DNA from: Planctomycetota bacterium
GTDB taxonomy: Bacteria; Planctomycetota; MHYJ01; JACQRL01; SBBU01
Assembly: GCA_016206485.1 (NCBI GenBank)
Contig: JACQRL010000039.1
Span: 1-39,782, forward strand
Length of the DNA stretch: 39,782 bases
Direction: 5' to 3'
Shown here one piece after another: positions 14,351 to 36,144 of this stretch. The position numbers and the translations under genes were made by a program. Numbering within the stretch: position 1 is the stretch's first letter; every line of letters starts with the position of its first letter. The notes beneath the pieces are model-generated. The model saw only the letters and a list, made by a program, of their open reading frames with translations. It made no database searches and was not told the origin of the DNA.

Positions 14351-16777
14351 ATGTCACAGTTTATACTGACATCAATTTTGCTTTTGTTTCAAAACGGTGA
14401 AGAAGTCGGATTTGACCTGCTTTATGATCAGGAAAGAGTTGAGCAGGAGTTGATATCCTACAGTAGCGCCAGAAACTGGCCTGCATTTCTGAAAAAAATT
14501 AAAAAGGTGGTCTCGGAATATGAAGGGAAAATCTGCGTCGTCGACTCTAAGTATGTTTCATTTAATGTATGGCTTAGAAATCTGCTCAGTCACATGGGAG
14601 CCGAGACGATCTCCATATTTCAGCGTGAATTTGCGCCGGATTACAAAGTTGAATTTGGAAAGGCGCTTTCCTCTGCGGATATCAGCAGGTGTCTTTCACT
14701 AATAGACAGGTTTTTTGTATGCAAAGAAACCCCTGATTTTGTCTTAAAATTAACCAATCAGCTTGTTGAAAAAGGACAGCTCACGACTGCTCTGCTGGTT
14801 TTTGAGGGTCTGATCGGCAGGTATGATCTGGAGATCAAAACGAGGGAGCTGGTTCAGGCGAGAATTAATGATCTTAAAAAACATGTGCGATGGGATTTTT
14901 CATATCCGAGGGCTCAGTTTCCTGTCTTCACTAATATGGGTTTATCTGACGAGCCGTCATCCAGATATTGCTCGATTGATGAGATCGCGGCAGGTATTGA
15001 GAATTATAAAAAGCAGTCGCTCTGTCTCATGGAAAAAACAGCGTCTGTAAAATTAGATCTTTCTTACAAAAGGTCTGAAGATGTTTTTGTTGTTCCCGCG
15101 ATTGATCCGGTTTCAGATAAAATGCTTGTGAATAATGGATTCAACTTCAAGCTGGTTGATTTGAAAAGACTTGATCCAACCGCCTCTCCCGGCGCTGAGC
15201 CGCATGTATTATTATCTGTCAGCAATAATGCGGATCAGCATGCCAATCAGCCCTCACTCGCATCTTCACAGTTCAAGATGCTGCCTTCAGTTATGTCGGG
15301 GCTGCTTGTCAGGAATTACTTGATCGTCAATCAGGTGGTAAGCTTCAACATCAACAATATCTATACAGCCAGCCAGCATCTGGTGTGTTACGAACTTTCT
15401 CAGGATGATAATTCGGTTGTCGCAAAGAAATTATGGAGTCTTAAGGAGACCGGTTCTGAGGATCTGAAAACATTTTTAGTCTCTTTTATTCCCCCGTTTG
15501 TGAATTCCGGTGACTCCCTGGTTTCTGTTGTCATGAAGAGAAGGATAAACAAATATGGCGGTGTTCAGAGCTGTGAGCTGTATATATACTGTTTTGATAT
15601 AAAAAATGGGGCAGTTCTCTGGAAAAGACAGCTGGACAGCTATCCTCTGTATTTTTACGGACAAAGAGCAAAAATAAGCTATCCATATATCTTTGTCACT
15701 GATGGTCTTATTAATGTTGTATTGCCGCATTCGTTCACGGTGTACAGGTTCACATTCAGCGGCGAGTTGGTCGGCTTTGACACCTTCTTTAAGAAGAGGA
15801 CTTCCGCTAATGATTTTCCTCAGCAGGGATTTACTTATGGACAGCAGAGCCAGGTCTTTATTATGCCGAGATGGTTTCTGGCAGAAGGAAAATTCTTTTT
15901 CGCGGATGATAATGATATTTACAAAACTGACTTTGTAGGTTTTAACCCTGTTGTACAGATGAGAATAAGCGATGTGAAGGCGCTCATTGCGGTAGACAGG
16001 AAGAAAGTTTCCTTTGTTGATAAGTCTGGACACCTTGCCTTTTTTTCTGTTACAGATAGCGCTCCGGAGGTGTTCAGCGATCCGGTTACAAAAATCAACG
16101 AACCATTTTGCGCGACAGACAGGCATGTATATTTTGTTGAAAAGCGGGAGGGCAAAAACGATCTTATAAGCATCAATCTTGATAACCTGATGATATGCTG
16201 CAGCACAAGTTTCGAAGGGGCTGAGCTGCATTCCCCGACCTATTATAAGGATTTTGTCATAGCTTCTTCTATAGAAGGAGCTCAGATATTCAGGTCGCTT
16301 GAAATCGAGCTTGAACTTGCCAGGAAAAATTCAGCCGGCGGGGAAGCAGATATAACAAGACTTCTTACTCTGTTAAACAGGGTATTTGAAAGGGCCTGTA
16401 TAAGAAATGTAAATGACCTTTATTTGAGGACATTACCGAATGAATTTGCCGATAATTTCAGCCGGCTGAAACAACCGGAGCAGAAAGAATTTGCGGCGTT
16501 TCCGAGATTTATAGTTTCCGCGATTTCAGAAAAGAAGATCTCTTTTAATGCAAAGGTGCTTAAACTTGCGCTGAAACTTTCCTCTGATACCAGGGAGCAG
16601 ATCAAGATAACAAACGAATTAATCGGTCATTACTCTGACAGAAGTCGATTTAGCTGCGCATTCTACAGATTTTATAAGATCTGTGTTGAGGTAGGCGCTC
16701 AGGATTTTAAGACTGCCTGGAAGGACACGGCTGAGCTGGTAAAATTTCTGCGGACACAAAATCGCAGGGTAAAGTAA
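14351..16777 (+). CDS. large hypothetical protein: helical N- and C-terminal regions flanking a PQQ/BamB-like beta-propeller-like core
   Basis: 808-aa ORF with ATG start. Central strings such as HLVCYELSQDDNSVVAKKLWSL and IYCFDIKNGAVLWKRQL resemble PQQ-like propeller blades. Coding status is strong; function is unknown. Confidence 0.6.
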   Translation: MSQFILTSILLLFQNGEEVGFDLLYDQERVEQELISYSSARNWPAFLKKIKKVVSEYEGKICVVDSKYVSFNVWLRNLLSHMGAETISIFQREFAPDYKVEFGKALSSADISRCLSLIDRFFVCKETPDFVLKLTNQLVEKGQLTTALLVFEGLIGRYDLEIKTRELVQARINDLKKHVRWDFSYPRAQFPVFTNMGLSDEPSSRYCSIDEIAAGIENYKKQSLCLMEKTASVKLDLSYKRSEDVFVVPAIDPVSDKMLVNNGFNFKLVDLKRLDPTASPGAEPHVLLSVSNNADQHANQPSLASSQFKMLPSVMSGLLVRNYLIVNQVVSFNINNIYTASQHLVCYELSQDDNSVVAKKLWSLKETGSEDLKTFLVSFIPPFVNSGDSLVSVVMKRRINKYGGVQSCELYIYCFDIKNGAVLWKRQLDSYPLYFYGQRAKISYPYIFVTDGLINVVLPHSFTVYRFTFSGELVGFDTFFKKRTSANDFPQQGFTYGQQSQVFIMPRWFLAEGKFFFADDNDIYKTDFVGFNPVVQMRISDVKALIAVDRKKVSFVDKSGHLAFFSVTDSAPEVFSDPVTKINEPFCATDRHVYFVEKREGKNDLISINLDNLMICCSTSFEGAELHSPTYYKDFVIASSIEGAQIFRSLEIELELARKNSAGGEADITRLLTLLNRVFERACIRNVNDLYLRTLPNEFADNFSRLKQPEQKEFAAFPRFIVSAISEKKISFNAKVLKLALKLSSDTREQIKITNELIGHYSDRSRFSCAFYRFYKICVEVGAQDFKTAWKDTAELVKFLRTQNRRVK

Positions 16778-16799: not shown

Positions 16800-17675
16800 C
16801 TATTTTGCTTTCCATGTTGTTAAGATCTCATCTATTGATTTCTCAACATCAACACCTTTAGCGCGGTAATTTTTCCTTATTTCTTTTATGAGACCTCTTT
16901 CTTTTTTTATAACTTCTTGGAGTTTTATCAATTCGTTTTTATATTCTATTGCGTTCATCTTTCCCAACGCCTTCACAGCGGCATTTTGAATTGCGACATT
17001 TGCATCCCAGATGTAATTTGCCACTACTTTCGCATGGTCTATAGATTTCATTGATCCAAGGGCTTTACAAGCACTTATTACTGCTACTCTTTCATCCAGG
17101 CTTGGGCGAGTGTTGAGAGGTTGTTCTAAAAATCTGGCGATTTCGCCGGCGCATTCTATTGAACCCCACCTATCAAGCAGCTTGATAATTTCTGAAAGTG
17201 TATTGACATTATATTCAACACGTAAAAGTTTTGCTATTTTAGACGCGTACTTTCTCGCATTCAAGTCTTCAAGCGCTATTACAACCAGAAGCTTGTCTGT
17301 TGCAGGATCATTAAGTAATTTTGCAACGTCATCCGTGTGTTTTGACGACTTGCATGCGCCCAAAAACCGCGCGGTAAGGCTTCTAACCTCCGGGTCTTTG
17401 TCTTCAAGCAATAAAGCTGCCTCATCTGCTTTGTCATTAGCGTTGATCAGCAGTAAGTGTAAAATAGAGTTTTTCTTTATAAGTGGGTCATCACTCTTTA
17501 GAGATCCAGCCAACTCCTCTTTAGACATTTTAGTAAAATGTGTATTACTGGACATATGACAACTGATGAGAAAGCCCAGTATGATGATGAGCGTATTAAA
17601 TGAAAAAACAAAAGAGATATGTTCAGTCTTTGAACAATTTACAAAATTATTTCTTTCCATCATAGAAGTAGTCAT
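16800..17675 (-). CDS. membrane-anchored HEAT-repeat protein
   Basis: 291-aa ORF with an N-terminal TM helix (FVFSFNTLIIILGFLISC). Repeats of about 31 aa follow, such as LLEDKDPEVRSLTARFLGACKSSKHTDDVAKLLND and WDANVAIQNAAVKALGKMNAIEYKNELIKL. Confidence 0.7.
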   Translation of the reverse strand: MTTSMMERNNFVNCSKTEHISFVFSFNTLIIILGFLISCHMSSNTHFTKMSKEELAGSLKSDDPLIKKNSILHLLLINANDKADEAALLLEDKDPEVRSLTARFLGACKSSKHTDDVAKLLNDPATDKLLVVIALEDLNARKYASKIAKLLRVEYNVNTLSEIIKLLDRWGSIECAGEIARFLEQPLNTRPSLDERVAVISACKALGSMKSIDHAKVVANYIWDANVAIQNAAVKALGKMNAIEYKNELIKLQEVIKKERGLIKEIRKNYRAKGVDVEKSIDEILTTWKAK

Positions 17676-17960: not shown

Positions 17961-18554
17961 TTGTTTGCGCTGGCGATATCGGTTACATTTCTGCATTCGC
18001 TTGTTCCTTCGCACTGGCTCTGCTTTTCGCTGGTCGCTAAAAGGTTCGGATGGAACACAAAAAGACTCTTTTTCACAATACTTCTTGCAAATCTCATTCA
18101 TATAATATTTCTTGGGGTAATTATTTTTCTGCTGGAGACTGTGATACCGCACGAAGTAGAAGAAACAGCGCATTTAATCGGCTCTGCTTTTATATTAGCG
18201 CTGGGCTTGGCCTACATTGTCATGCACTACCTCAACATAGGACATAAACATTCAGCTGAAAATATCGTGGAGGGAGGCTCAACAGCGTTTCTAATGCTGT
18301 CGCTTATACTTTCTCCCTGCAACTATGTAATTGCGCCGCTTATATATGCGGCATCAATGCCCGGATTCACAATAGCAGTTCTTATAATAGCCATTTTTTT
18401 TGTGACTGTCGCGACAGCCTCGCTTCTTGCCTATCTCAGCTTCATCGGGCTGAAGGCGATTAATCTGGAATGGTTTGACCATAACGAAAAATGGATAATG
18501 GGGCTTGTCATGATTGCCGTTGCAGTTATTATGTATCTGGGTGAAACTCATTAA
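17961..18554 (+). CDS. polytopic membrane protein with His/Cys TM motifs (possible metal-ion or DsbD/NicO-superfamily-like transporter)
   Basis: 197-aa ORF with about six TM segments and motifs FLHSLVPSHW, NIGHKHS and LSPCNYVIAP. The start is uncertain: the TTG at 17961 is 22 nt from an AAGGAGG at 17932-17938, and an in-frame ATT lies at 17946. Confidence 0.5.
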   Translation: MFALAISVTFLHSLVPSHWLCFSLVAKRFGWNTKRLFFTILLANLIHIIFLGVIIFLLETVIPHEVEETAHLIGSAFILALGLAYIVMHYLNIGHKHSAENIVEGGSTAFLMLSLILSPCNYVIAPLIYAASMPGFTIAVLIIAIFFVTVATASLLAYLSFIGLKAINLEWFDHNEKWIMGLVMIAVAVIMYLGETH

Positions 18555-18572
18555 TACCTGCCGACATTATTG

Positions 18573-19004
18573 ATGAATTTTAAAAGGATTGCTCTTATTC
18601 TGATACTCGCAGTTTCTATTTCTGTTATATGTTATACAAACTATAAAGATCTTTTAGACAAACATCCTTCGCCATGGGAATTGGCATATGCCCCGGACTA
18701 CCACCATGGGAAATTCGTATACATGAAAGCGAAAGTCATTTCGAAGGTTGGAAAGGGATATGTTGTTGAGGATCACGGCTACAGAATACATGTCGTAACG
18801 GAAGCGCAACTTAACCAGGGTGATTATGCGATGATTGTTGGAAGGTTTGACAAAGAGTGGAGGATTTATGCCCATGATATTGAGGTTGTACCGCTTGTTA
18901 CCCATAAGACTGTTATCAGTTATGTCTTGGCATTTTTGGTTGTTGTAGTTTTTGCCTCGCAGTTTTTCAGGGCGTTCAGGGTGGAAAAATGGCAGATATA
19001 TTAA
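18573..19004 (+). CDS. bitopic membrane protein with OB-fold-like central domain, function unknown
   Basis: ATG at 18573; the ORF-track TTG is at 18570. N- and C-terminal TM helices flank a beta-rich segment (GKFVYMKAKVISKVGKGYVVEDHGYRIHVV...GDYAMIVGRF). It overlaps the next gene by 16 nt. Confidence 0.5.
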   Translation: MNFKRIALILILAVSISVICYTNYKDLLDKHPSPWELAYAPDYHHGKFVYMKAKVISKVGKGYVVEDHGYRIHVVTEAQLNQGDYAMIVGRFDKEWRIYAHDIEVVPLVTHKTVISYVLAFLVVVVFASQFFRAFRVEKWQIY

Positions 19005-20152
19005 CGCATTATACTTCCGGCCGTCTCGCGGGCGTTGTGCTTGAGCCAAGAAAGGAGATCGCGCTCGTGGCAGGAGTCCTGATGCCGGATATTATTTCGA
19101 AATCAATGATGTTTATTTTTCAGTCGAAGCCGTTTTATTCTGCCTTCAGTCACTCCATTGTCGGAGCTGTTATGTACTCAGCCCTGTTCTGCGCGCTATT
19201 TGTGCGAAGGGAGACGCTAAACGTGTTCTTCCCTTTCATGGTGGTCGGCTATCTGATACATATTTTGTTTGATGCGTTTAAAGACTATCTTGGTTTCGGT
19301 GTTGTATATCCGTTTCTTCCTTTTAGTCAGGAGTTCATACAGCTGCCTTTTTACAATCCGTACAACTCTGTTTACCTTATACCTGCTGATATACTTGCTT
19401 TGTTAATAGTGATTATTGTAAGACAGAAGTTGTTCGGCGGCGAGCCGTCGCGCGCAAACTGGAGATTGTTTGTCGGAGATCTTTGGCAAAGTCTGGTGAA
19501 CGGCCTCGGCGCGATTAAAAGAGTAAATTTTGGCATGCTGGTTTGCGCCGCAATGTTTTTTTTCTTGGGGAGAATAAATAATGATGGAGACAAAAGCAAA
19601 TTCGACTGGATATATGAATATGGAGTTATGCCGAAGAAGTTTGATGGGCGCGAGTATTTTTTTGAGTGCTTGAATTACACAAGACAGCTGAAAGGAAATG
19701 ATTTTGAGGCATCTTATCGGGGCAGAGATATTCTCTTTTTGTCAGAAACGAGCATTCAAGGCGATTCAAGTGTTATTGCAAGGTACGATTATGAAAAAGA
19801 TGCCTTCAAACTTTTAGATTCATTTAGTCTGTCGACTGAGATGAAGCTGTTAATAATTTTAATGACCGTGCTTATATTCGCTGTCTCATGCTGTTCGAAT
19901 AATTCTCTTCTGCTCTTGACGAGATATCTTTTATTTCCATATCTGTGCCTTCTAGTCCTGGTTTATTTTTTTGGAACCGGTATGCATTATGGCGAACTCT
20001 CTTCAAATATTTTTACTGTGCTGTGCGCGAATACTGCGTTGTGGTTTGCTACAAATGGAGGCGGAAAAGAGGCGCTGATTGCTGCGTCAGCTGTTCTGGC
20101 AAACTCTCTCTTCAATATGTACGTGATCGTGTGGCCATATTTTATCCTCTGA
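18989..20152 (+). CDS. YdjM-like membrane-bound metal-dependent hydrolase domain fused to a long C-terminal membrane region
   Basis: 387-aa ORF. The N-terminal ~130 aa carry the ordered motifs ILTHYTSG, LMPDIISK, FSHSIVG and GYLIHILFDAF, as in the YdjM/LexA-binding inner-membrane hydrolase family. The C-terminal ~250 aa add a soluble segment and more TM helices. Confidence 0.55.
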   Translation: MADILTHYTSGRLAGVVLEPRKEIALVAGVLMPDIISKSMMFIFQSKPFYSAFSHSIVGAVMYSALFCALFVRRETLNVFFPFMVVGYLIHILFDAFKDYLGFGVVYPFLPFSQEFIQLPFYNPYNSVYLIPADILALLIVIIVRQKLFGGEPSRANWRLFVGDLWQSLVNGLGAIKRVNFGMLVCAAMFFFLGRINNDGDKSKFDWIYEYGVMPKKFDGREYFFECLNYTRQLKGNDFEASYRGRDILFLSETSIQGDSSVIARYDYEKDAFKLLDSFSLSTEMKLLIILMTVLIFAVSCCSNNSLLLLTRYLLFPYLCLLVLVYFFGTGMHYGELSSNIFTVLCANTALWFATNGGGKEALIAASAVLANSLFNMYVIVWPYFIL

Positions 20153-20357: not shown

Positions 20358-22052
20358 ATGAGAATGGGAGTTTTTTTATCTAAATACTTAGTAGTAACTC
20401 TGTGTGGTTTAGTATTTGATATTCAAATAACAGAGGATGACTACAACGATCTCGTAAGACAATTATCAGACAAAAATCCTACTATTAGAGGAAGAGTGTT
20501 TAATAAACTTGTTGGATGTTGGGAGGCAGATGACATACTTGATTTAATCAGTAGGTCTATAGAGTCTGCGAAGCAGGATGGCAACTCCTTTTTAACTGAA
20601 ATCCTATCACAGATTAAAACCTGTATCATTAATCGAAAGGAGTTGGGAAGCGAATTAGTTGAGATATTTACTGACAAAGTGGATGAAATGTGCAGCTGGA
20701 GTGAGGATTTTTTAGTATTATTTTTCACGAGGCAGATAAATCAGCACATGGGAGGCTTGGTAAAGGATACAAAGACATGCGAAGTGTTTGCAAAGTGGTT
20801 ATTTGGGCGCTTAAAGTCACATAGCGCTAAAAGGAACTTTATTGATGCCATAGGGGATAATTTTTTGGATAAATCACCACTCCAGATACCGAATGGAAAA
20901 GAGTTGCTGGTCAAGCTACTGAAAGACACAGATACAAAAGTCAAGGCCAGTGCTTTGGGAACACTTTATCGTATGGATGTTAGAGACCCTTACAAAGAGA
21001 TTGTTGATCTGACAAAAGATAGTGAGCCTATGATAAGACTTAGTTCAGCAAGGTACTTAGTGCGAGCAGATGCTGAGAAATTCGGCGATAAGTTAGCCGG
21101 ATTGCTGAATGATGAATTATTGTACATAAGAATGTTGGCGGTGGAAAAAATTGCTGAAAATGGATTGAAACAGTATTCAGGTCAGATTGCTGTGCTTCTC
21201 GATGAGCGATTATATACCGATTATAAACCTATAGAGAAAAAATTTGCGATTATTGGGGATATTGAAAAAATCTTTGGCGGTGTTAACGCTTTAAAAAAAA
21301 GCGCTATTGCCGCCCTTGGAACTTTGGGCTCTAAAGAATTTGTAAAAGAAGTAGGAAATTTTTTGAAGCACGACAACATTTCATTGAGGCTAGAGGCGAT
21401 GAGATCGCTTGCTAAATTAAGAGCCTTTGAATATATACCTGAAATAGGGAGTTTCCTTAAGCATAACGAGATCCAATTGAGGGTAGAGGCAATTAAATTT
21501 CTTGGCGAGTTAGGAGCTGTGGAATATATTGATGAGATGGTGATTATATTACAGTCGGAAAATCACTATGATATTCAACTCGAAGCGGTAAGGAGTCTGC
21601 ATTTGTTTGGAGCAAAGGAATATATAGAACAATATATAGATAGCACAAAGAAATTGGATACAGATTCTATTACGACCTTATTAACTATTTTAGGCGATGT
21701 CAAAGCCAGAGAATTCTCTAATTTTGCCGTGGAATGCTTGGCAGATGAGAAATGCAGGGTAAGAGCTATCAGGACATTAGGAGATATGGGTATTAAAAGA
21801 CATGCCAAAGATATTGCCATATATCTTAGAGATAGTAGTGCGGAAGTTAGGATAGCAACAATTGAAGAATTAGGATCGCTAGATGCAGTTGAATATACAA
21901 AAGAAATTGCTGAACTTGTAAGTGATGAAACTGTTGTTAGTTCTGGTTGGTTGCATAGTCCTCCCAAAATCGTTAAAGAATGCGCTTTGAAAGTGCTTAA
22001 AAAATGGAATGTCGATATAAAACAACTGCAGAAGGAAAATAAAACTAAATAG
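20358..22052 (+). CDS. HEAT-repeat (PBS-lyase-type) protein with N-terminal signal/anchor
   Basis: 564-aa ORF with a hydrophobic N-terminus (FLSKYLVVTLCGLVF). Many ~31-aa repeats follow, for example FLKHDNISLRLEAMRSLAKLRAFEYIPEIGSFLKHNEIQLRVEAIKFLGELGAVEYIDEM and LRDSSAEVRIATIEELGSLDAVEYTKEIAELV. Confidence 0.75.
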   Translation: MRMGVFLSKYLVVTLCGLVFDIQITEDDYNDLVRQLSDKNPTIRGRVFNKLVGCWEADDILDLISRSIESAKQDGNSFLTEILSQIKTCIINRKELGSELVEIFTDKVDEMCSWSEDFLVLFFTRQINQHMGGLVKDTKTCEVFAKWLFGRLKSHSAKRNFIDAIGDNFLDKSPLQIPNGKELLVKLLKDTDTKVKASALGTLYRMDVRDPYKEIVDLTKDSEPMIRLSSARYLVRADAEKFGDKLAGLLNDELLYIRMLAVEKIAENGLKQYSGQIAVLLDERLYTDYKPIEKKFAIIGDIEKIFGGVNALKKSAIAALGTLGSKEFVKEVGNFLKHDNISLRLEAMRSLAKLRAFEYIPEIGSFLKHNEIQLRVEAIKFLGELGAVEYIDEMVIILQSENHYDIQLEAVRSLHLFGAKEYIEQYIDSTKKLDTDSITTLLTILGDVKAREFSNFAVECLADEKCRVRAIRTLGDMGIKRHAKDIAIYLRDSSAEVRIATIEELGSLDAVEYTKEIAELVSDETVVSSGWLHSPPKIVKECALKVLKKWNVDIKQLQKENKTK

Positions 22053-22221: not shown

Positions 22222-22938
22222 TTAGAATCGCACCGACAGCAGATACTTTAGTTCATCTTCAACATCTTTTTGGTCAATGACGTAGCCTTTTACTTCGTTT
22301 GTAATGATGTTATCCAGAAGATTTTTTGTATAGACAAGGTAATTTTTCACATCTGTTTCTTTTATTCCGAATTGTTTTGAAAGTTCCTTATAGGTTGGAG
22401 ATATAGCGCTTCTTGCGTCGTAGTATGAACTGAAGACATCAAAATATACTTTCTTGTCCTGTTTATGGAGCACATCCTGCAATTCGCCTATAGAGCGTGT
22501 TATTACAGCTCTTGCCCATTCCTGATCAAAGTAATCAGATGGGTTTCTTGATTCATGCGAATCTGTCGGTTCATCGATAATTCCATCTGAGCTTATTGTA
22601 ACCGACCCGCCGCCCCGCTTCTGTCTCATCGAGTCTCTGCGCGAGTTGATCAGAAAATGTTTGAGAGTTGCTTTTATATATGTTCTGAACCTGCCCTTAT
22701 CCGGCGAAACGTTTTTAAGATAATCCTTTTCGAGAAACTTTGTGAAGTATTCCTGTGTAAGATCCTTGGCCTCCTCATTTGATTTATTCCAGAACATTCT
22801 GATGTATTTATATGCCGGCATCCAGTACATGGAAATCAACCTTCCGATCTGCTCTTTATAATCTTTTGTGTCCCTGTCTTTTGCATTAAGAACTACTCCC
22901 CAGATTGTATTAGGAAAGCCCCAGCGGTCTTCCGCCAT
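22222..22938 (-). CDS. ECF-type RNA polymerase sigma-70 family factor
   Basis: Region-2-like AKDLTQEYFTKFLEKDYL...FRTYIKATLKHFLINSRRD and region-4 HTH-like SPTYKELSKQFGIKETDVKNYL. The ATG at 22938 (MAEDRWGFP...) is preferred because it aligns with the start of the paralog at 39580. The ORF extends to an ATG at 23016, adding a hydrophobic 26 aa that is unlikely in a sigma factor. Confidence 0.72.
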   Translation of the reverse strand: MAEDRWGFPNTIWGVVLNAKDRDTKDYKEQIGRLISMYWMPAYKYIRMFWNKSNEEAKDLTQEYFTKFLEKDYLKNVSPDKGRFRTYIKATLKHFLINSRRDSMRQKRGGGSVTISSDGIIDEPTDSHESRNPSDYFDQEWARAVITRSIGELQDVLHKQDKKVYFDVFSSYYDARSAISPTYKELSKQFGIKETDVKNYLVYTKNLLDNIITNEVKGYVIDQKDVEDELKYLLSVRF

Positions 22939-23097
22939 CGTGGTATTATGCTTTTTTATCATAGGAGCTACTGCTTTCATTATAATATACATGACGATCG
23001 AAAGTCCAATTATCACGACACTTTGTCTGCTAACTCGAAGTAAAGATTATACGTAGGGCGCGTGCTCTTCCAAAGAGCATGGGTGATAACAGCAAGT

Positions 23098-25647
23098 CTA
23101 TTTGGTTTTTGTTAGGATTTTGATGAATATTAGAGCAAGAAATGGAATAGATCCTATGAAAAACAACAATTGTAAAGAGTTAGCTATCCTGCTGGCAGGT
23201 TTTGGGGCTGTTTTAGCGTAGACTAGTCCTGTATACTGACCTATTATATTGTGTTTTAAGAGAATGTCTCTGTGTTTTGACAGGAATGTTACTAGTTTAC
23301 TAGCAGGATTCGATGTTGCTTGTGTAGTGATGTAGCACAGAATGCCCCTTTGCCTGCTACTGGTACTTGTGCTACTGCCTGATTCTGGTGCGGGACTTCC
23401 TTGGGTTGGAGGTTCGGTCGGATCTGGTATCAGGATTCCTGGACTTGGGCTGGGTACATTTGGCTGCGCCAGCAATGTGACAGACACCATCGATGATTCA
23501 CCGCAAAGTTGGCTGTAAGCAGTCACGCCGAAGGTATAAACTTGCTCAATAAGATATTCTTCGATTGATGACTCTGAAAGCAAGGCTTGTGTTGTATTTG
23601 CAGGGAAAGTTGTAATGAGAAAAAATACCGGGATACCACCTACAAGCTTTCTTCCGTAAAGCCTGAATTCATTCTCATTATTTGAGTTGTCGTTCCAGGT
23701 CAGAAGAACTCCACTGCCTTCTACAAAGACAGCATTTAAATCTGATGGAGCGTTTATTGTGCAGGTTGGTGGAGGCGTCACGGCCGGCGTATCAACAGCT
23801 ATGTATGTCCCCGGACCCGGTACAGTTGATGCATAAGAAGACTCTCCAACTATATTTCTTGCCTTGATTCTGTAATAGTATCTTGTTGATGGCTGAACAG
23901 TATTGTCAGTGTATGTGATTATATTTGCAGGGATGTTGAATGTGGTTTTTGGCGAAAAGTTTTGGCTTGCGCTCCTTTCCAAAAGAAATTCATCCTCTAC
24001 TTCTGAGTTATCTCTCCAGGTCATAGTAACACGGGAAGACTGTACTGATGTTGAACGAAAGTTTGAAGGAGCTTTTGGAGGATCTCCTATCAAGCGAGAA
24101 TCATTTATTTTACAGACTTTAATATCTCCAGTATCTCTGTTGTCTTGAATAAAGACCAGTGTCTTCCAGCCGCCTATTTTCTCGACCTGTATTGGCAGCT
24201 GCTCTCCCGGACCGTCAGAGATCACGAGAGGATCATCTTCCCATATTCTTATCGGTTCTCCTGTGGGATTGCCGTCCTCCACTGCAATTGCAAGACACTC
24301 TATGTTTTTGTCTCCGTCGAAATTGTGCTCCCAGACAATCAGAATGAATAAATCAATACTGCTGGTCGAATCTACTGTAACTATGGAGTTTCTATTATCG
24401 CTCATAATACTGGCGTCATAACCAAGTTGAATTCCGTTTGTATTTCCATTTTCTGATAATTGCGGATCTCCACCTTGGGAAAAAAGCTGAAGCATTATAA
24501 AGTATCCGTCATCCGGGTTGTAGTTCTGTCTGTTGCTCCAAGTTACAACTGTCTGTCCACCCGGAGCAGAAGCTAGAGATGGTTCGACCTGTGCCCCGCT
24601 CGCATCGGATATCTGAAGTCCGTTAGGAGTTTGATCCCATACTATTACTCCGAATTGATTAATGCGTCTTGCATACAACTTGTTGTCCGGAGATTCCTCT
24701 CTAACGTATACGGCGACAACTTCACCAGAGAAGTCATCATATATTGCGACGTGATCTCTGTCTGTAATGTCATCAGTTAAATCTGTGTTGGATAAAATTA
24801 TCCCACCGTTGCCCCATACATATTCTCCGCCTTGTGGGATAGTTCCGTTTCTTGTTCGGAATTCGCAGACGATGTCCCAGTCATCATTTGAAAATCTCTC
24901 TGCAGTAATAAAGACTCCATCATGAGCAGTTATAATATTTGGTGAAATGACCTGATCGCCTCCAAAGTCTATCAAAACTCCTTCATCTCCGAAGAGTTTA
25001 TCAAGGTTGTTTGTCACTCTTTGCAGGTATACCTGACTTGCGTCCCTGTAGTCTTCACATACAATGTATGCCCCTCCTTCGCCATCAGGGATTGCTTTGA
25101 AGTTTATCTGGTCGCTATCGGCATCAAATATTGGGGCGAGGTTTGGGTCAAGAGGGCCAGATCCGCCATCAGCATTGATTAATGGAACTATTACTCCTTC
25201 ATCATCAACAATGAAAGCATAGATATTCCAGTTGTCCTCCTGAGTTGTTGTTATATTATGCTCGAAGAAAACAAAAGATCTGTTCCCTGCCGACGGAATA
25301 ACTTTTATATTTCTTAATGAGCCGTCTGAGGGAAGGTTGATTCCGATTTGTTCTCCAGCTGATCCGAACCTTGTCGTTGAGTCCAGATATAATCTTTGAA
25401 AAACCAGTCTCAAGTTGTCCCGAACGCAAACTCCTGCGAAGCCGTCAAGAACTCCTCCCCCTCTGTACACCGGGACCGCAGAAAAATAGTTTTCAGTAGA
25501 ATCGTCTGCAGCAATTACGATGTTGTTATCAGAGGGATTTGTGTGGAACTCTGCCTCTAAAACCAGGGGTAGCAATAAAACTGCCGCAAGTATCAGTTTC
25601 AGCCCATTTGACATGATGGCCGTGGTTGTTTTGTCTCGAGATTTCAT
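23098..25647 (-). CDS. giant secreted repeat protein B (W-x-D-x-R...IY repeats, 2x FN3-like, Pro/Ser stalk, Cys-motif C-terminal anchor)
   Basis: ATG at 25647 gives MKSRDK...LILAAVLLLPLVLEA, a signal peptide. The ORF-track start at 25677 is a TTG overlapping the upstream stop. FN3-like strings include VTMTWRDNSEVEDEFLLERS...YYYRIKARN and VLLTWNDNSNNENEFRLYGR. The C-terminus reads GILCYITTQATS...KHRD... followed by a terminal TM helix. Confidence 0.7.
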   Translation of the reverse strand: MKSRDKTTTAIMSNGLKLILAAVLLLPLVLEAEFHTNPSDNNIVIAADDSTENYFSAVPVYRGGGVLDGFAGVCVRDNLRLVFQRLYLDSTTRFGSAGEQIGINLPSDGSLRNIKVIPSAGNRSFVFFEHNITTTQEDNWNIYAFIVDDEGVIVPLINADGGSGPLDPNLAPIFDADSDQINFKAIPDGEGGAYIVCEDYRDASQVYLQRVTNNLDKLFGDEGVLIDFGGDQVISPNIITAHDGVFITAERFSNDDWDIVCEFRTRNGTIPQGGEYVWGNGGIILSNTDLTDDITDRDHVAIYDDFSGEVVAVYVREESPDNKLYARRINQFGVIVWDQTPNGLQISDASGAQVEPSLASAPGGQTVVTWSNRQNYNPDDGYFIMLQLFSQGGDPQLSENGNTNGIQLGYDASIMSDNRNSIVTVDSTSSIDLFILIVWEHNFDGDKNIECLAIAVEDGNPTGEPIRIWEDDPLVISDGPGEQLPIQVEKIGGWKTLVFIQDNRDTGDIKVCKINDSRLIGDPPKAPSNFRSTSVQSSRVTMTWRDNSEVEDEFLLERSASQNFSPKTTFNIPANIITYTDNTVQPSTRYYYRIKARNIVGESSYASTVPGPGTYIAVDTPAVTPPPTCTINAPSDLNAVFVEGSGVLLTWNDNSNNENEFRLYGRKLVGGIPVFFLITTFPANTTQALLSESSIEEYLIEQVYTFGVTAYSQLCGESSMVSVTLLAQPNVPSPSPGILIPDPTEPPTQGSPAPESGSSTSTSSRQRGILCYITTQATSNPASKLVTFLSKHRDILLKHNIIGQYTGLVYAKTAPKPASRIANSLQLLFFIGSIPFLALIFIKILTKTK

Positions 25648-25673
25648 ATATGATTCAGAGACCTCTTTTTTGA

Positions 25674-28202
25674 TCAATAGTTGGCTAAGAGCCGTTTAAT
25701 ATTGATAAAAAGAGAAACAATTAAAAATGTAATCAACGAGTATCTTGCGAAGCTGTCTTTGTAACCGTACTCAAACCAGATTGTTAAATAATAAACAATT
25801 TGTTGTACTGATTGGGAATAAATTGATGTGAAGAATGTGCCGGGAATAGTTGAATCAAAATATCTGTCTCTGCATTTTGTCATAAATATTACAGAGTTTG
25901 CGTTAACGCTCCCGGTTGTTCTGGTTGCGATGTAGCAGAGTCCCTCTTTTCTCACGCTGTTTTTTGTGCTTGATTTCGGTTGTGATTGTGGAGGCGCAGT
26001 CGGAGGTGGCGGGTCAGGAATAAAAATCGGAGATGTTTGTCCACTCATAAAAGCGGAGGAGGATGTATTAGATGAACCCGGTTCGCCGCTTCCTCCCTCA
26101 CCTTCGAGGGTTGTAGCGCTCGCGGGACCAATTGCTACGGATATAGAGATGCCCATCCTGTACCTTATTTTATATTTATATAGAGTTCGCTGTTGCAGAC
26201 CGGTATCTGTATAGCTTGATGCCGGATATGGAATTGTACCAACGAACTCAAAATTTCCACTTTCTCCAACAGCTCTTTTTATCTCTATCTGTGGCGGGGG
26301 AGGAAATGGATAAAGAGGATTGGTCCATTGAAGTCTTATTTGAGAACCTGATAGCGCAGTCGCGGTGAGATTAGAAGGAGGCAGTACTCCGGAACTAGGC
26401 GCTTGCCCGTTCAGTTCCCCCGGAATACCAACAGCAAGAGTCTCTGTATACTCAGAATGTGAATCTCGCGTGACTGATCCCCAGGCAGGGAGACTCGTTC
26501 TTGCATATAACCGTATTCTGTACATGTAGATACTGTCTGGAATGACTGTGCTGTCGTGAAACGGAACCGCGCTGTTCGGAATATCAGCTATTTGTATGTA
26601 TTGATTATTATTCGGATCAGAATTATATAAGCTCTTTCTTTCGATCTTAAAACCGGTGCTTATGATCCCCTGCACGCCTGATCCTCCTGAGCTGACAAGA
26701 GGTGATACCGTTGGGTTCCAGGAGATTTGTACTTCCAGGTATGTTGACTGAGGTTGGATCGCAGTTGGTATTTTATTCGGCTTTACATTTGTGCCATCAT
26801 CGGTCGCGACCCCTGTAATAACACTCTGTGTGTTCGAATAACCGACCCAAACGAGATCGTTGCCATACGGGAACACATATTCCAGACTTTGATTTCCGGT
26901 GTTGCCTACCTGAAAACCGGGATCTCCATTTCCTTCATAGAACCTGCTGGTTCCGTTAAAGGCGCTCAGGAGCTGTCCATAAATCTTTTTATCACCTCCT
27001 GCCCTGAGGTCTTCCCAGAGTACGAATATTGCCTGATCCGGATTTACAAGAACCTTCGGCCTGGTTTGATTTCCTTCCGCATAACAAACAGTAGTGTCCC
27101 ACTCTTTGGATCCTGTTATTTTCTTTATCTTTGCGGCATTGATGTCATGAGTTGTTGATCCCTGCAGTATTGTTGACCAGCTGATTATTAATTCTCCCGT
27201 ATTCAGGTTTGTAAAATCAGGGGTGAAATTTTCTACTGAGCTGTCGGATACATTAATTCCATAGCCCGGAAACCTCACAGTTGCTGATTGTACCTGAAAG
27301 CTGTTGAAGTAAACATCGTTGTTTCCATCCTGATTACTCAGACAAACAAAATGCGCTACATTACCTGAGGCGTCAGAATCTGTCAGTACAGAATAATCCG
27401 ACTCTGTTGATTGATTTCCCAGTGTTCCAAATACGGTTATTCCATTAGTGTAGCCCTGCGCGGTATTGATTGTTGATGTAAGGTCATCTGTTTTAAAGAT
27501 GTTCATTTTTATATCGCCTCCCTCCTGCCAGCTGACCAGAACAAGTGTATTTGCAGACCACGCAAGTGGTTGTATGGGATTGATCTTCCAATTGCTTACC
27601 TGTCTTGCAGGATTGATCGTAACAATGCCCGGAGGATTTAATATATTGCCGTCCGGTTTGATAATCCCAAGCTTCAAAGTTATATTTTGCGTGATATTAT
27701 CCTGTTCTCCATACAATACTACAGACAGATACTGACTGCTTTTTAGAACTGCGGTGACCTTTGGTTCGATCAATGTGGCGCTTGAAGATGACGCAATTAA
27801 GACACCAGTCCCCCATTCTTTGACATAATCTTTATTTACTCTGTTTGCATAAATATTTGAGGTTCCGTTGCGATTATCCTGACAGACTACGACTAGTTTT
27901 GGGTCTTGTGTTGACGGCGGGACATATGCAAAATCGGGATTCCATTGATCGGAGGTAGGGTGGTTAATTATAGGAGATGCCGAAGAAACAAGCCCTCCTT
28001 CATATATACTTTTTGCCATCACATCCTTTTGTGAAAGCGTGTTGTATACCACGTCGTACTGACTGCCTGTCAGTGTCGGATTTCGTTTAGCAACCATATT
28101 TTCTGCGGATGCCGCGACTTCTTTGTCGATTCCATTCCATTCCTGGACATTTGCCTGAAACAGCAGCAGGGAAATTCCAGTGATGAAGCCAGGTAATTTC
28201 AT
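25674..28202 (-). CDS. giant secreted repeat protein A (paralogous architecture to 23098..25647)
   Basis: 842-aa ORF with ATG start and a signal-peptide-like N-terminus (MKLPGFITGISLLLFQANV). Repeats include CQDNRNGTSNIYANRV, WEDLRAGGDKKIYGQLL and SNQDGNNDVYFNSF. FN3-like strings include IRLQWTNP...YKYKIRYRMG. The C-terminus reads EGLCYIATRTTGS...KCRDRYF...PG... followed by a TM helix. Confidence 0.7.
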   Translation of the reverse strand: MKLPGFITGISLLLFQANVQEWNGIDKEVAASAENMVAKRNPTLTGSQYDVVYNTLSQKDVMAKSIYEGGLVSSASPIINHPTSDQWNPDFAYVPPSTQDPKLVVVCQDNRNGTSNIYANRVNKDYVKEWGTGVLIASSSSATLIEPKVTAVLKSSQYLSVVLYGEQDNITQNITLKLGIIKPDGNILNPPGIVTINPARQVSNWKINPIQPLAWSANTLVLVSWQEGGDIKMNIFKTDDLTSTINTAQGYTNGITVFGTLGNQSTESDYSVLTDSDASGNVAHFVCLSNQDGNNDVYFNSFQVQSATVRFPGYGINVSDSSVENFTPDFTNLNTGELIISWSTILQGSTTHDINAAKIKKITGSKEWDTTVCYAEGNQTRPKVLVNPDQAIFVLWEDLRAGGDKKIYGQLLSAFNGTSRFYEGNGDPGFQVGNTGNQSLEYVFPYGNDLVWVGYSNTQSVITGVATDDGTNVKPNKIPTAIQPQSTYLEVQISWNPTVSPLVSSGGSGVQGIISTGFKIERKSLYNSDPNNNQYIQIADIPNSAVPFHDSTVIPDSIYMYRIRLYARTSLPAWGSVTRDSHSEYTETLAVGIPGELNGQAPSSGVLPPSNLTATALSGSQIRLQWTNPLYPFPPPPQIEIKRAVGESGNFEFVGTIPYPASSYTDTGLQQRTLYKYKIRYRMGISISVAIGPASATTLEGEGGSGEPGSSNTSSSAFMSGQTSPIFIPDPPPPTAPPQSQPKSSTKNSVRKEGLCYIATRTTGSVNANSVIFMTKCRDRYFDSTIPGTFFTSIYSQSVQQIVYYLTIWFEYGYKDSFARYSLITFLIVSLFINIKRLLANY

Positions 28203-30764: not shown

Positions 30765-31223
30765 ATGAAGTTTACGACGACTTTGATGAGGCAGAAGGAA
30801 CTAAAAAGAGAGTGGTATTTAATTGACGCTTCAAACGCTACGGTAGGACGTCTTGCTACAAGAGTAGCTACCGTCCTGATGGGTAAGCACAAACCCACAT
30901 ATGTCACTTACCTTGATTGCGGTGATAATGTAATCATTGTTAATTGCAGTAAGGTCAGACTCACTGGAGATAAGGCGCAAACAAGGGTTTATAAGAGATA
31001 TTCTGGATATATGTCAGGTGAAAAGGAGCTCCCGTATGCAAGGGCATTTGAGAGGGATCCGACTTTCGTCGTGAGAGAGTCAGTAAGACGTATGCTTCCT
31101 AAAACAAATCTTGGCAGACTTGCTATAAGGAAGTTAAAGTTGTATGAAGGAGCAGAACATCCGCATAAAATACAATCACCTAAGGTGATGAAGCTGACAG
31201 ATATAAGAAAAGGGAGAGTGTAA
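30765..31223 (+). CDS. rplM: 50S ribosomal protein L13
   Basis: 152-aa ORF with WYLIDASNATVGRLATRVATVLMGKHKP, typical of L13. It is followed by rpsI in the conserved gene order. Confidence 0.97.
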   Translation: MKFTTTLMRQKELKREWYLIDASNATVGRLATRVATVLMGKHKPTYVTYLDCGDNVIIVNCSKVRLTGDKAQTRVYKRYSGYMSGEKELPYARAFERDPTFVVRESVRRMLPKTNLGRLAIRKLKLYEGAEHPHKIQSPKVMKLTDIRKGRV

Positions 31224-32859: not shown

Positions 32860-35175
32860 CTAGTTAAATATCTTCTCTTTATATTTCTCCGCTTCTTTTT
32901 GCAGTTCGTTCAGACTTGAATAAAACCAGTCAACTCTGTGTTCTTTGCCAGTGATTTTGTTTAACGACATGTAGGCGATGAGCCTTGTCCAGGGATCAGG
33001 ATCTGCCAGAAAATTCAGGAGAATCTTCTTAACTTCAAGAGATTCAAAGTTGCTTAAAACTTTTACAAGGGCGCGATAGGTATGGATTCCACATTTTTCT
33101 TTTATAACTGCTGAGTTGCGTAGCTGTGCAAGAATGTATTTCTCAATCTCCGGAGAAGAACGATTTATAAAGAGTTCAATTATTGTCTCCATGATATGAG
33201 TTGTTGATCCAAGTGCGGCTTTTACCAGCTGTTGTTTCTGTTCAGAAGATGGAATTTGGTTAGAAGAGTTGGAAGAGGGAATGCCCGCCAGGCTTTTGAG
33301 CATGGTTTTATTAGCCATCTCTACAAGCTGCGGGTCAGAGAGCTGTCCTGAGGTTCCCAGATAGAAAATCGCAAGCGCTGCAAGATGCTGTTCATCCGCG
33401 TTTTCAGATAGATAAAGTTCCGAGATCTTCTTAAGTTTTGAGTCAATGACATTAATTATCTTTTCGTTCTTTATATCGAGCATTTTAATGTATCTTATGA
33501 CTCTGTCGATCAGGTGGACAGGCAGAGAAAGGTCATTTAATACCGTCATTGAAAGTTCAGGAAACGAATCGGGATAATTTCTGAAGTAAGTGAAAAGAGC
33601 TGCAAATAAAACCTGATCATCTTCAAACGCCGATAAAAGCAGCTGTTCGAGAAAAGCCTTCCCGTATTTTCCAAGTCCCGGAAGCGTTTCAATAAGAAGT
33701 ATCCTGACAGAAGGCTCAAAATCGCTTAAGGCATAGCGAACAGGTCTTGCGTTTCTGATTGGGCTTGGTTTTTGAAGATAACTTCGTTTGCTTTTGCTTA
33801 GGATATACTTTGCTGTTTCAAGCTTTTCCATGTATTTTTTCATGCTGGTTTTTTCTCCGCTTAGAGCCAATGACATTTCAAGAAGCTGGCGTAAAATTTT
33901 AAGTTTGGCATTGGGCACATAACTGTCAGCTGGGTTTTCAAATTTAGGAGCGGGAGAGTCAATAATCCACTTCAGTTTCAGAATGTTTTTCTTCATTTCA
34001 TTGCACATGTCAACGAACTTTTTGGCAGGATCAGAGGAGTCTTTATCAAAACATTTTAGGGAGGCCTTCATGAGTACAAGCACTTTTTCAAAATCTCCGG
34101 TAGTTCTTGCGTCATCCAGCATCTCGACGAGAATGCCAAATGCCTTTTTGTGTGACAGTTTTGCCAGGGAGTTGATAAACGCTATTTGAAATACGGTATC
34201 AGGTTCATTTCTAACCTTGTCAGTCAAAAATTGCGGGAGTTCCTGAAATCCTGACATTGTCAGAAAATACAATGCGCGCGCCCTTTCGATGGCATCTTTG
34301 CTGTTTTTTAATACCTCGAAGAGGTCCTGCATCGGATCATATTTTTGAATTGTGCCGAGATAATAAACCGCGTTTCTTCTGACCCTTTTACTCGGATCTG
34401 AGATCAGTCTTCTGACGTGCAGGTAGAGATCTCTTTCAGGAAATAAGCTGAGTCCGTACGCAAATCTGGAGGTCAGAGTAAAAGGATAGGATTTTGTGAG
34501 CTCGGATGAGATTATGCGGCTTATCATAGTGCTGTATGGATCGCCAAGATTAAGGAAGTTTGGAACTTCTTCCGCGACGCCCATATAAGCGGTCGCCATC
34601 TTGAAAAACTCACGCAGTTTGTCCTGAAATTCCTTTATAGTAATGACCAGATTTGAGGAAGGAAGCCCGAGAAGCAGCAGAGAAAATATCTCTTCGTTAT
34701 CGAATGTTCTGTTGCTGTGAAAATATTTTAGGAGCATTCGGTTAAAACATTTCAGATTAGATTCCAGGAGTGTCTGTTCTGAATCAGAATAGGAGGTATG
34801 CGAAATAGCAGAGGCTACAGGGTCAGATTCGAGCAGGACTCCTTCTATCCAGGGATGATGGCTTGAAAAGTCTTTTGTGGTGATTCCGCATTCACTGATG
34901 AAATCATAGTTGATGGGAGGTGCTGGAATGTTAGCAGGTGGAGGGGTCATCTTTTTCTTATCCGCTGGAGGCTTCTTTGGTAAAGGTCCAGTCTGCTGGC
35001 CACCTTCTTCTTTGTCAGCAAGATTGCCTCCTCCGGTTTGAATTATCCTAAGCTCATCTGTGACCGTAATCATGGGTTGGAAATTTGTTATAGAATCGAA
35101 AGGGTCTCCCGGCGGAAGCAGGATATCCATATCCATCAGGATGATTAAAGAGAATATAGAAAAAATCTTCTTCAT
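32860..35175 (-). CDS. secreted HEAT-like repeat protein, paralog 1 of a divergent pair
   Basis: 771-aa ORF with a signal-like N-terminus, then DMDILLPPGDP..ITNFQP and a Pro-rich segment. HEAT-like units follow (SDPSKRVRRNAVYYLGTIQKYDPMQDLFEVLKNS; LADPDPWTRLIAYMSLNKITGKEH). Alignable end to end with 36145..38481. Confidence 0.65.
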   Translation of the reverse strand: MKKIFSIFSLIILMDMDILLPPGDPFDSITNFQPMITVTDELRIIQTGGGNLADKEEGGQQTGPLPKKPPADKKKMTPPPANIPAPPINYDFISECGITTKDFSSHHPWIEGVLLESDPVASAISHTSYSDSEQTLLESNLKCFNRMLLKYFHSNRTFDNEEIFSLLLLGLPSSNLVITIKEFQDKLREFFKMATAYMGVAEEVPNFLNLGDPYSTMISRIISSELTKSYPFTLTSRFAYGLSLFPERDLYLHVRRLISDPSKRVRRNAVYYLGTIQKYDPMQDLFEVLKNSKDAIERARALYFLTMSGFQELPQFLTDKVRNEPDTVFQIAFINSLAKLSHKKAFGILVEMLDDARTTGDFEKVLVLMKASLKCFDKDSSDPAKKFVDMCNEMKKNILKLKWIIDSPAPKFENPADSYVPNAKLKILRQLLEMSLALSGEKTSMKKYMEKLETAKYILSKSKRSYLQKPSPIRNARPVRYALSDFEPSVRILLIETLPGLGKYGKAFLEQLLLSAFEDDQVLFAALFTYFRNYPDSFPELSMTVLNDLSLPVHLIDRVIRYIKMLDIKNEKIINVIDSKLKKISELYLSENADEQHLAALAIFYLGTSGQLSDPQLVEMANKTMLKSLAGIPSSNSSNQIPSSEQKQQLVKAALGSTTHIMETIIELFINRSSPEIEKYILAQLRNSAVIKEKCGIHTYRALVKVLSNFESLEVKKILLNFLADPDPWTRLIAYMSLNKITGKEHRVDWFYSSLNELQKEAEKYKEKIFN

Positions 35176-35348: not shown

Positions 35349-35939
35349 TTAAAAGTGAGGGCTGATGGTTGGCAGAAGCTTTTTTACCGCCTTTCCTCTG
35401 TGGCTGATTTTGTTTTTTTCCTCTGGAGATAATTGAGCGGTTGTCTTTCCGAGCTCTTTGACATAAAAGATTGGATCATATCCAAAGCCATTTGTACCCT
35501 CGGATTTTGAGTTTATGTATCCATAGCATCTGTCACTGCTGACTGCAAAAATCTTTCCTTTGTAACCAAAAATACATACTGCTATGTAGTATGTCTTTCG
35601 CTTTTCAAACGGGATTCCTTCCAATTTTTTCAGCAAAAGCTCATTGTTATCCTGAGATGCAGCATTTGCACCTGCAAATCTTGCGGAGCGCACTCCGGGG
35701 GCGCCTTTTAGAAACTCGACGCATATCCCGGAATCTTCTGCGAATACTGGATAGGTAACCAGACTGGAATAAAACACGCACTTACTTGCGGCGTTTTCAA
35801 AGAATGTTTTTCCATTTTCAGGGGCGATGTTTTTTATCCCCGCTTCATCAAGTCCGACCAGATCCGCGTTGATTTGTGCAAACAGTGATTTGAACTCGCG
35901 CAGCTTTCCCTTGTTACCAGTCGCAATAAGCAGTCTCAT
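35349..35939 (-). CDS. rdgB: RdgB/HAM1 family non-canonical purine NTP pyrophosphatase
   Basis: 196-aa ORF with LLIATGNKGKLREF, GTNGFGYDPIF and ISHRGKA motifs. Confidence 0.92.
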   Translation of the reverse strand: MRLLIATGNKGKLREFKSLFAQINADLVGLDEAGIKNIAPENGKTFFENAASKCVFYSSLVTYPVFAEDSGICVEFLKGAPGVRSARFAGANAASQDNNELLLKKLEGIPFEKRKTYYIAVCIFGYKGKIFAVSSDRCYGYINSKSEGTNGFGYDPIFYVKELGKTTAQLSPEEKNKISHRGKAVKKLLPTISPHF

Positions 35940-36144
35940 AAATTGTAGAGACTATGACATAGCCCGTAGAAGACAAGTAAATTTGAGTGGAACACGACGC
36001 CATTTTGTGCCCGGTACCATCTCTTATCTGTGGAATTCGCCCAGATCTGTGCAATCAGTGAAAGAGTTTTATCAAAGGACCATTATATATGGTGGATATT
36101 ATAAGTATTTTATCTGGTGCTGGGTAAATGTTGTTTATATTATT

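Follow-up and report, generated by a model that had tools for sequence, protein, structure and literature searches.

Contig JACQRL010000039.1 of the Planctomycetota bacterium assembly GCA_016206485.1 comprises 39,782 nucleotides (nt), and this whole stretch is referred to below as the window. Two adjacent genes on its minus strand, here called A and B, encode exported proteins with C-terminal tails that are very probably diverged copies of the CFI-box, a domain described by the NCBIfam model NF041770 (CFI_box_CTERM). Gene A is found at 28202..25674 and encodes 842 amino acids (aa), the C-terminus reading CYIATRTTGSVNANSVIFMTKCRDRYFDSTIPGTFFTSIY...KRLLANY. The mechanically called open reading frame (ORF) of gene B runs from a TTG start at 25677 to 23098; judged from the sequence, however, the ATG at 25647, preceded by an AAGAGG motif, is the most likely start of translation. 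Counted from this codon, gene B (23098..25647, minus strand) encodes 849 aa, is identical to entry P0118 of the protein library, and ends in CYITTQATSNPASKLVTFLSKHRDILLKHNIIGQYTGLVY...KILTKTK. The two genes are separated by 26 nt, and the plus-strand translation of the same coordinates is riddled with stop codons. An earlier reading of this DNA, made from the letters and their translations without database searches (the sequence-only reading), had called the two proteins giant, a description that these lengths do not bear out.

The two proteins display the same domain order: a signal-like N-terminus, a long region of repeats, two FN3 domains, a stalk, and the CFI-box-like tail. The hydrophobic, signal-peptide-like N-terminus is clear in B and weaker in A. 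Around 450-500 aa of each protein hold degenerate copies of a 54-aa repeat with the consensus GGAIVxWEDxRxGxxDIYAQRVDxxG...W; the copies in A are found at 26793-28025 on the minus strand, and those in B in the equivalent N-terminal half. This repeat is covered by no Pfam domain, neither in Pfam scans of A and B nor among the precomputed Pfam domains of P0002, while the same scans gave an fn3 match in A at aa 608-684 and one in B of 30.2 bits. P0002 is the sole relative of the N-terminal domain of A that was detected in a word-indexed search using full-length A. It contains eight near-perfect copies of the 54-aa repeat followed by a FlgD_ig domain and a sorting tail of the type IX secretion system (T9SS). 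Across the last ~300 aa A and B are 26% identical (E 2e-11), and they are tandem, distantly paralogous exported proteins.

The stalks are, as the sequence-only reading had noted, rich in proline, and also in serine and threonine. They are ~45-55 aa long and end directly before the cysteine that opens the tail. Read from the translations, the stalk of A is encoded at 25938..26096 (minus strand; aa 703-755, GGSGEPGSSNTSSS...PIFIPDPPPPTAPPQSQPKSSTKNSVRKEGL) and that of B at 23338..23466 (minus strand; QPNVPSPSPGILIPDPTEPPTQGSPAPESGSSTSTSSRQRGIL). An I[FL]IPDP motif just ahead of the proline-rich run is common to both stalks, despite the ~26% identity between the two proteins.

The CFI-box-like domain of A is encoded at 25677..25937 (minus strand) and comprises aa 756-842, that is 87 aa counted from the invariant cysteine (CYIATRTTGS...). 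That of B is found at 23101..23337 (minus strand) and comprises 79 aa, again from the invariant cysteine (CYITTQATSN...). The sequence-only reading had placed the tails here, and both of the sequences that it quoted are indeed present, on the minus strand. It had also proposed that the tails are divergent domains of the CFI-box type, with a profile search as the check, and this proposal has held. The isolated tail of A matches NF041770 with 27.2 bits (E 2.5e-6) over profile positions 1-50 of 69, corresponding to aa 756-805, and the isolated tail of B with 28.2 bits (E 1.2e-6) over positions 1-55. Both alignments place the cysteine at profile position 1, and no other NCBIfam model matches the isolated tails at E<10. 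The matches are significant, yet lie under the curated cutoff of the model, which is 40 bits. The NCBI pipeline would therefore leave these proteins unnamed, and annotation would miss them.

The relationship was also approached from both directions with other profiles. A hidden Markov model (HMM) built from 101 canonical boxes was searched against the 698 six-frame segments of the window and matched just the two tails (E 3e-5 and 4e-5), the next best segment having an E of 0.09; the alignment of tail B extends ungapped over positions 1-54. When the A and B pair was compared with the canonical alignment using hhalign, the result was a probability of 96.3% and an E of 2e-9, ungapped across columns 1-48. 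In the reverse direction, full HMMER was used to search 1.84 billion representative proteins with a profile made from the two tails alone. Besides A and B themselves, this search recovered two junk repeat ORFs as well as 13 further proteins (E 3.5e-5 to 9e-4). All 13 carry the CFI-box motif, and the ten that were tested all belong to NF041770, with 62-160 bits. The junk ORFs, P0119 and P0120, were the top non-self matches and were dropped as repetitive ORFs in a wrong frame. Nothing nearer to the A and B tails than the canonical boxes was found among the 1.84 billion proteins, and a word-indexed search using the tail alignment returned zero matches. An exact look-up of protein A turned up no other record of it. 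As far as sequence comparison can tell, the homology itself is thus close to certain: the tails appear to be complete but strongly diverged CFI-box domains. The sequence-only reading had further asked for other carriers of the motif; this search was made within the window, where no third tail of the form C[FYW][IVL][ATS]T is found in a real gene.

A search using a canonical consensus gave 115 proteins, several of them named by NCBI as CFI-box-CTERM domain-containing protein. The canonical consensus is CFIATAAYGSxLxPxVxxLRxFRDxYLLTNxxGxxFVxxYYRYSPP. The motif given in the sequence-only reading is nearly exact when compared with this, except that 11 residues, and not 10, separate GS from FRD. 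Five residues are invariant in alignments of 65-70 sequences including A and B (63-68 canonical ones): Cys1, Ile3, Thr5, the Arg in RD, and the Tyr that opens YY. Around these residues the two tails have changed considerably. Position 2, which is Phe in the canonical consensus, is Tyr in both A and B; Tyr is also found here in the true members P0124 and P0125. AAYGS is mostly replaced, by RTTGS in A and QATSN in B, and the Phe of FRD has become Cys in A (CRD) and His in B (HRD). The SPP motif is gone from A and reduced to APKP (APKPASRIA) in B. In the last helix A has kept a near-invariant Arg and Leu (FARYSLI), while B has kept the Pro (GSIPFL). Tail A also contains a second Cys, at aa 777. 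A lipoprotein reading of the opening cysteine was considered and rejected: positions -3 to -1 are EGL in A and GIL in B, unlike the lipobox [LVI][ASTVI][GAS]-Cys, and the residue lies ~750 residues from the N-terminus, behind a hydrophilic stalk.

The canonical CFI-box is predicted to form a compact domain of four helices and ~77-85 aa. The AlphaFold2 model of P0078, a stand-alone box of 79 aa, was made from an alignment of 70 sequences and obtained a predicted local distance difference test score (pLDDT) of 92.9 and a predicted TM-score (pTM) of 0.76, with helices at box positions 2-8, 14-27, 31-53, and 55-76. The model of tail A (65 sequences; pLDDT 77.5, pTM 0.43) places helices at positions 3-6, 13-27, 31-56, and 62-86. 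Foldseek searches against PDB gave 0 matches for the tail A model and none below an E of 7 for the canonical box; a profile search of PDB sequences was empty, as was a Pfam scan of canonical boxes.

The tails end in a hydrophobic segment, as the sequence-only reading had stated when it described a terminal transmembrane (TM) helix. In A this segment is encoded at 25683..25739 (minus strand; aa 822-840, SLITFLIVSLFINIKRLLA), and its best 19-residue window has a Kyte-Doolittle (KD) hydropathy of 1.81. In B it is encoded at 23113..23169 (minus strand; LLFFIGSIPFLALIFIKIL, followed by TKTK) with a KD of 2.52. However, the segment appears to fall at the position of canonical helix 4, and the putative TM helix would thus be helix 4 of the box turned hydrophobic and not an addition to the box. 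Both values exceed those of all 20 canonical boxes with a short tail, the maximum of which is 1.78. With 87 and 79 aa from the cysteine and no added TM segment with an arginine-containing tail, A and B fall into the short-tail subclass.

To describe the family more widely, a metagenome scan for the exact peptide CFIATAAY was used; it gave at least 600 matches, of which 80 loci were kept, with 82 usable boxes. In this sample the host proteins are 177-1774 aa long, with a median of 638 aa, and a signal-peptide-like N-terminus was found in 55 of 65 complete ones. The box is typically located at the end of large, adhesin-like exported proteins, and named members are known from Thermodesulfobacteriota, Pseudomonadota, Nitrospiraceae, Omnitrophota, and Acidobacteria. 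The ten residues ahead of the cysteine are 33% Gly and 14% Ser. Position -1 is Gly in 60 of 119 boxes and otherwise variable: A and B have Leu there, and R, S, P, or K are found in other boxes. A single Cys is present in 88 of 112 boxes. Long-tail boxes make up 62 of the 82; they extend for a median of 109 aa from the cysteine and carry a separate TM segment (median KD 2.23) with ~4 Lys or Arg among the last 15 residues. The remaining 20 are short-tail boxes with a median of 81.5 aa, a KD of 0.55-1.78 (median 1.21), and no basic end.

The position of the box within the proteins and the genomes is also somewhat variable. Clusters of two to five CFI-box genes are found in four loci (L091, L104, L139, and L147), paralleling the A and B tandem. 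Internal boxes followed by TM segments are found in P0126 (1661 aa), P0130 (1331 aa), L099, and L158; in P0126 and P0130 a second ectodomain follows and ends in a second box, as if two CFI-box genes had been fused. The box is further found on P0122 and P0124 (loci L085 and L086) and on P0127, which have no signal peptide. Among these three, one has a HEPN-like motif and another TPR repeats with a zinc ribbon, while the gene of the third adjoins a type I restriction-modification system (hsdS/hsdR). Some short canonical proteins of 110-125 aa were at first taken for stand-alone boxes, and this interpretation was abandoned, since L081 and L083, at the least, represent the C-terminal fragments of genes for giant surface proteins that carry frameshifts.

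Taken as a whole, the most probable description of the locus, held with a fair margin of doubt, is that A and B are exported proteins with diverged CFI-box tails in which the last helix serves as a type I membrane tether. The anchoring mechanism by itself is somewhat better than an even bet. According to this proposal A and B would be exported by the Sec pathway, and the C-terminal helix would be retained in the cytoplasmic membrane with its short, Lys- and Arg-containing end on the inside. Helices 1-3 of the box would then be situated on the outer face of the cytoplasmic membrane, and the stalk would keep the FN3 and repeat domains away from it. We infer this topology, and also that the tail is retained in the mature protein. 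The box of A and B is then most likely an extracytoplasmic, membrane-proximal anchor module. The long-tail members agree with such a location, since a TM segment followed by ~4 basic residues after 62 of 82 boxes places the box outside the membrane. That helix 4 can itself turn into a membrane-spanning segment, as the two tails indicate, argues for a box acting at the membrane surface. Furthermore, P0002 carries a T9SS tail on an A-like N-terminal domain, which makes the C-terminal module look like an exchangeable part for surface retention.

Several observations weigh against this interpretation. The scores of the tails are under the curated cutoff not only in isolation but also in the context of the whole proteins, where they fall to 22 (A) and 23.2 (B) bits, and the NF041770 alignment stops at position 50 or 55 of 69. 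Confidence in the predicted structure of tail A is only moderate. The proposed identity of the last helix with helix 4 relies on the helix positions predicted for tail A, on a MAFFT alignment, and on the retained Arg and Leu in A or Pro in B. The hydrophobic segment of A is borderline for a TM helix, and the N-terminal signal of the same protein is weak. Short-tail boxes whose helix 4 is not of TM type are found on exported proteins, so the box must do more than span a membrane, and the members that have no signal peptide are not explained by a purely extracytoplasmic anchor role. Finally, the literature searched holds no paper on the CFI-box, CFIATAAYG, or NF041770, and no experiment on any member.

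The strongest competitor to the membrane tether, though an unlikely one, is that the CFI-box marks the cargo of a dedicated and so far undescribed sorting pathway, and that the tails of A and B are transient signals and not mature anchors. The folded box would be recognised and cut at or near the invariant cysteine, and the protein would be released or covalently joined to a lipid or to the envelope. Several observations fit this picture. The box closes large, adhesin-like proteins that bear a signal peptide, being found at their very C-terminus behind a flexible linker rich in Gly and Ser or in Pro; the TM segment and basic tail after 62 of 82 boxes resemble sortase-type signals; residue 1 is an invariant Cys, preceded by Gly in half of the boxes (60 of 119); the curators at NCBI included -CTERM in the name of the model; and the sole relative of the N-terminal domain of A has a T9SS tail. 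The conserved C, T, R, D, and Y also resemble a recognition or reaction site more than a passive anchor. The invariant Cys, Thr, Arg-Asp, and Tyr suggest a binding or reactive site and not a passive spacer, and such polar invariants in a small domain keep the sorting tag alive as a minority view.

On the other hand, no partner enzyme presents itself. No gene resembling a sortase, an exosortase, a rhombosortase, or a peptidase is found beside A and B, and the 39.8-kb window contains no candidate processing enzyme, in agreement with the sequence-only reading. Nor does any gene family recur beside the box when the neighbouring ORFs of the 80 kept loci (662 kb) are clustered all against all; one large cluster, covering 22 loci, was rejected because it consists of antisense-frame translations of repeat genes. 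Position -1 is variable, the box may be internal, lack a TM segment, or be found on proteins with no signal peptide, and ~50 residues, predicted to be folded, separate the cysteine from the TM segment, unlike the arrangement in known sortase-type signals. For these reasons the idea of a signal for sorting or anchoring, raised in the sequence-only reading, is not established in the sense of a sortase substrate: the canonical box is predicted to be a folded domain of ~77 aa and not a short linear motif beside a TM segment, and there are internal cases, cases with no TM segment (20 of 82), and cases with no signal peptide.

In its broadest form, the idea of a cargo tag would make the CFI-box the mark of a widespread, undescribed pathway for sorting or self-attachment, comparable in scope to PEP-CTERM/exosortase or T9SS, with the cysteine as the reaction site and the tails of A and B as the minimal functional core. 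This too is doubtful. Were it true, the core would be C-x-I-x-T ... R-D ... G ... Y together with a hydrophobic final helix, and this remote lineage would have kept the essentials only.

Less probable still is that the box is a module for oligomerisation or docking, through which the tails of co-expressed A and B would pair, possibly by a disulfide between the two cysteines, or that it is a self-processing module with the cysteine as the nucleophile. Pairing would fit the adjacency of A and B, which lie on the same strand 26 nt apart, and the clustering of CFI-box paralogues in canonical loci. The single Cys of most boxes (88 of 112) would be unpaired within the domain, and the predicted helical-bundle fold would be typical of dimerisation modules. 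However, a further Cys is present in tail A (aa 777), and for members with no signal peptide a cytoplasmic location would be expected, in which disulfides are not formed. As regards self-processing, no similarity to Hint or Ntn folds was found, and the Foldseek comparison with PDB was empty. Finally, a chance or compositional resemblance to the CFI-box, which would leave the tails as a paralogue-specific juxtamembrane segment with a TM helix, could appeal to the scores under the cutoff, to the lack of close relatives, and to the lack of a third copy within the window, but it is very improbable, given that the two independently diverged tails are only 28% identical and nevertheless both align ungapped from position 1 with the five invariant residues kept, that their protein context (C-terminal, behind a linker, and exported) is that of canonical members, and that the reciprocal search, which returned CFI-box proteins and nothing else apart from junk, effectively refutes it; judged by sequence comparison, such a coincidence may be regarded as excluded for practical purposes.

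The tails of A and B are thus a variant of a known but uncharacterised family, the function of which they do not reveal. The family is widespread yet unstudied, and A and B are useful outliers within it. They show which residues survive extreme divergence, namely Cys, Ile, Thr, Arg-Asp, Gly, and Tyr, and suggest that helix 4 of the box can become a membrane-spanning segment.

Directly downstream of B, at 22222..23016 on the minus strand, a sigma-70 family gene of the extracytoplasmic function type is found. The protein matches TIGR02937 with 48.2 bits (cutoff 42.9) and contains Sigma70_r2. The ORF probably includes ~50 surplus N-terminal residues, the true start being internal. The gap of 81 nt between B and this gene contains the hairpin GCTCTTTGGAAGAGC as well as a site resembling a promoter, and an anti-sigma factor is not evident. 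Other neighbours encode a HEAT-repeat protein, an enoyl-CoA hydratase, an aldehyde dehydrogenase, and the rplM-rpsI pair. Four HEAT/PBS-lyase-like proteins are encoded within 40 kb, at 16800-17675 (minus), 20358-22052 (plus), 32860-35175 (minus), and 35827-38481 (plus), and those of 564 and 771 aa are found within a few kb of A and B. A connection between such genes and the cysteine of the box was considered and dropped, since none was called in the three gene-annotated canonical loci. ORFs of 808, 433, 197, and 144 aa in the regions 14351-16777 (plus), 9702-11003 (minus), and 17961-19004 (plus) have no NCBIfam match, and those of 808, 197, and 144 aa have no Pfam match either. The 197-aa ORF resembles a multi-pass membrane protein and precedes a homologue of the YdjM-like membrane hydrolases at 18989-20152.

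The rplM gene is found at 30765-31223 on the plus strand. The L13 protein it encodes is at most 56% identical to that of any of 185,579 GTDB species representatives, and the best matches are spread over Gemmatimonadales, Planctomycetota, and Bacteroidales. Judging from this protein, the host appears to represent a deep, unsampled lineage, with which the lack of closer relatives of the tails is consistent. A genome scan based on rplM gave no usable synteny.

The known C-terminal sorting signals offer a useful comparison. In the systems LPXTG/sortase, PEP-CTERM/exosortase, GlyGly-CTERM/rhombosortase, and MYXO-CTERM/myxosortase, a motif of 3-6 residues is found immediately before the TM segment. 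Like these tripartite signals, the tails of A and B are C-terminal, follow a linker, and finish with a hydrophobic helix and a few basic residues, and with MYXO-CTERM they also share a conserved cysteine. They differ in that ~50 residues, predicted to be folded into helices, lie between the cysteine and the hydrophobic helix, and in that no cognate enzyme gene is found in the window or near canonical boxes. Apart from NF041770, no sorting-signal model of NCBIfam or Pfam matches the tails at E<10.

The C-terminal domain of T9SS cargo (PF18962, Por_Secre_tail) is similar in its size and setting, being a folded domain of ~80 residues at the end of signal-peptide-bearing surface proteins, and it occupies the equivalent slot in P0002, the relative of the repeat domain of A. 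It is, however, a β-sandwich with no TM segment, while the CFI-box is predicted to be all-helical, and the Pfam scan gave no match between PF18962 and the tails of A and B.

The third comparison is with the canonical CFI-box itself. The long-tail boxes differ from A and B by their separate TM segment and Arg- and Lys-rich end, found in 62 of 82 boxes ~109 aa from the cysteine, and the canonical short tails by a helix 4 that does not exceed a KD of 1.78, while that of A and B is TM-grade (1.81 and 2.52). Many other features are shared. In both cases the domain starts with an invariant cysteine right behind a linker of low complexity and forms the C-terminus of exported proteins with several domains. 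The alignment is ungapped over ~50 residues, in which C, I, T, to some extent G and S, RD, G, F or Y, and Y are kept. The four helices predicted with moderate confidence for tail A coincide in position with the canonical ones, and the 79-87 aa of the two tails lie close to the short-tail median of 81.5. Like A and B, canonical boxes are also found on tandem paralogues.

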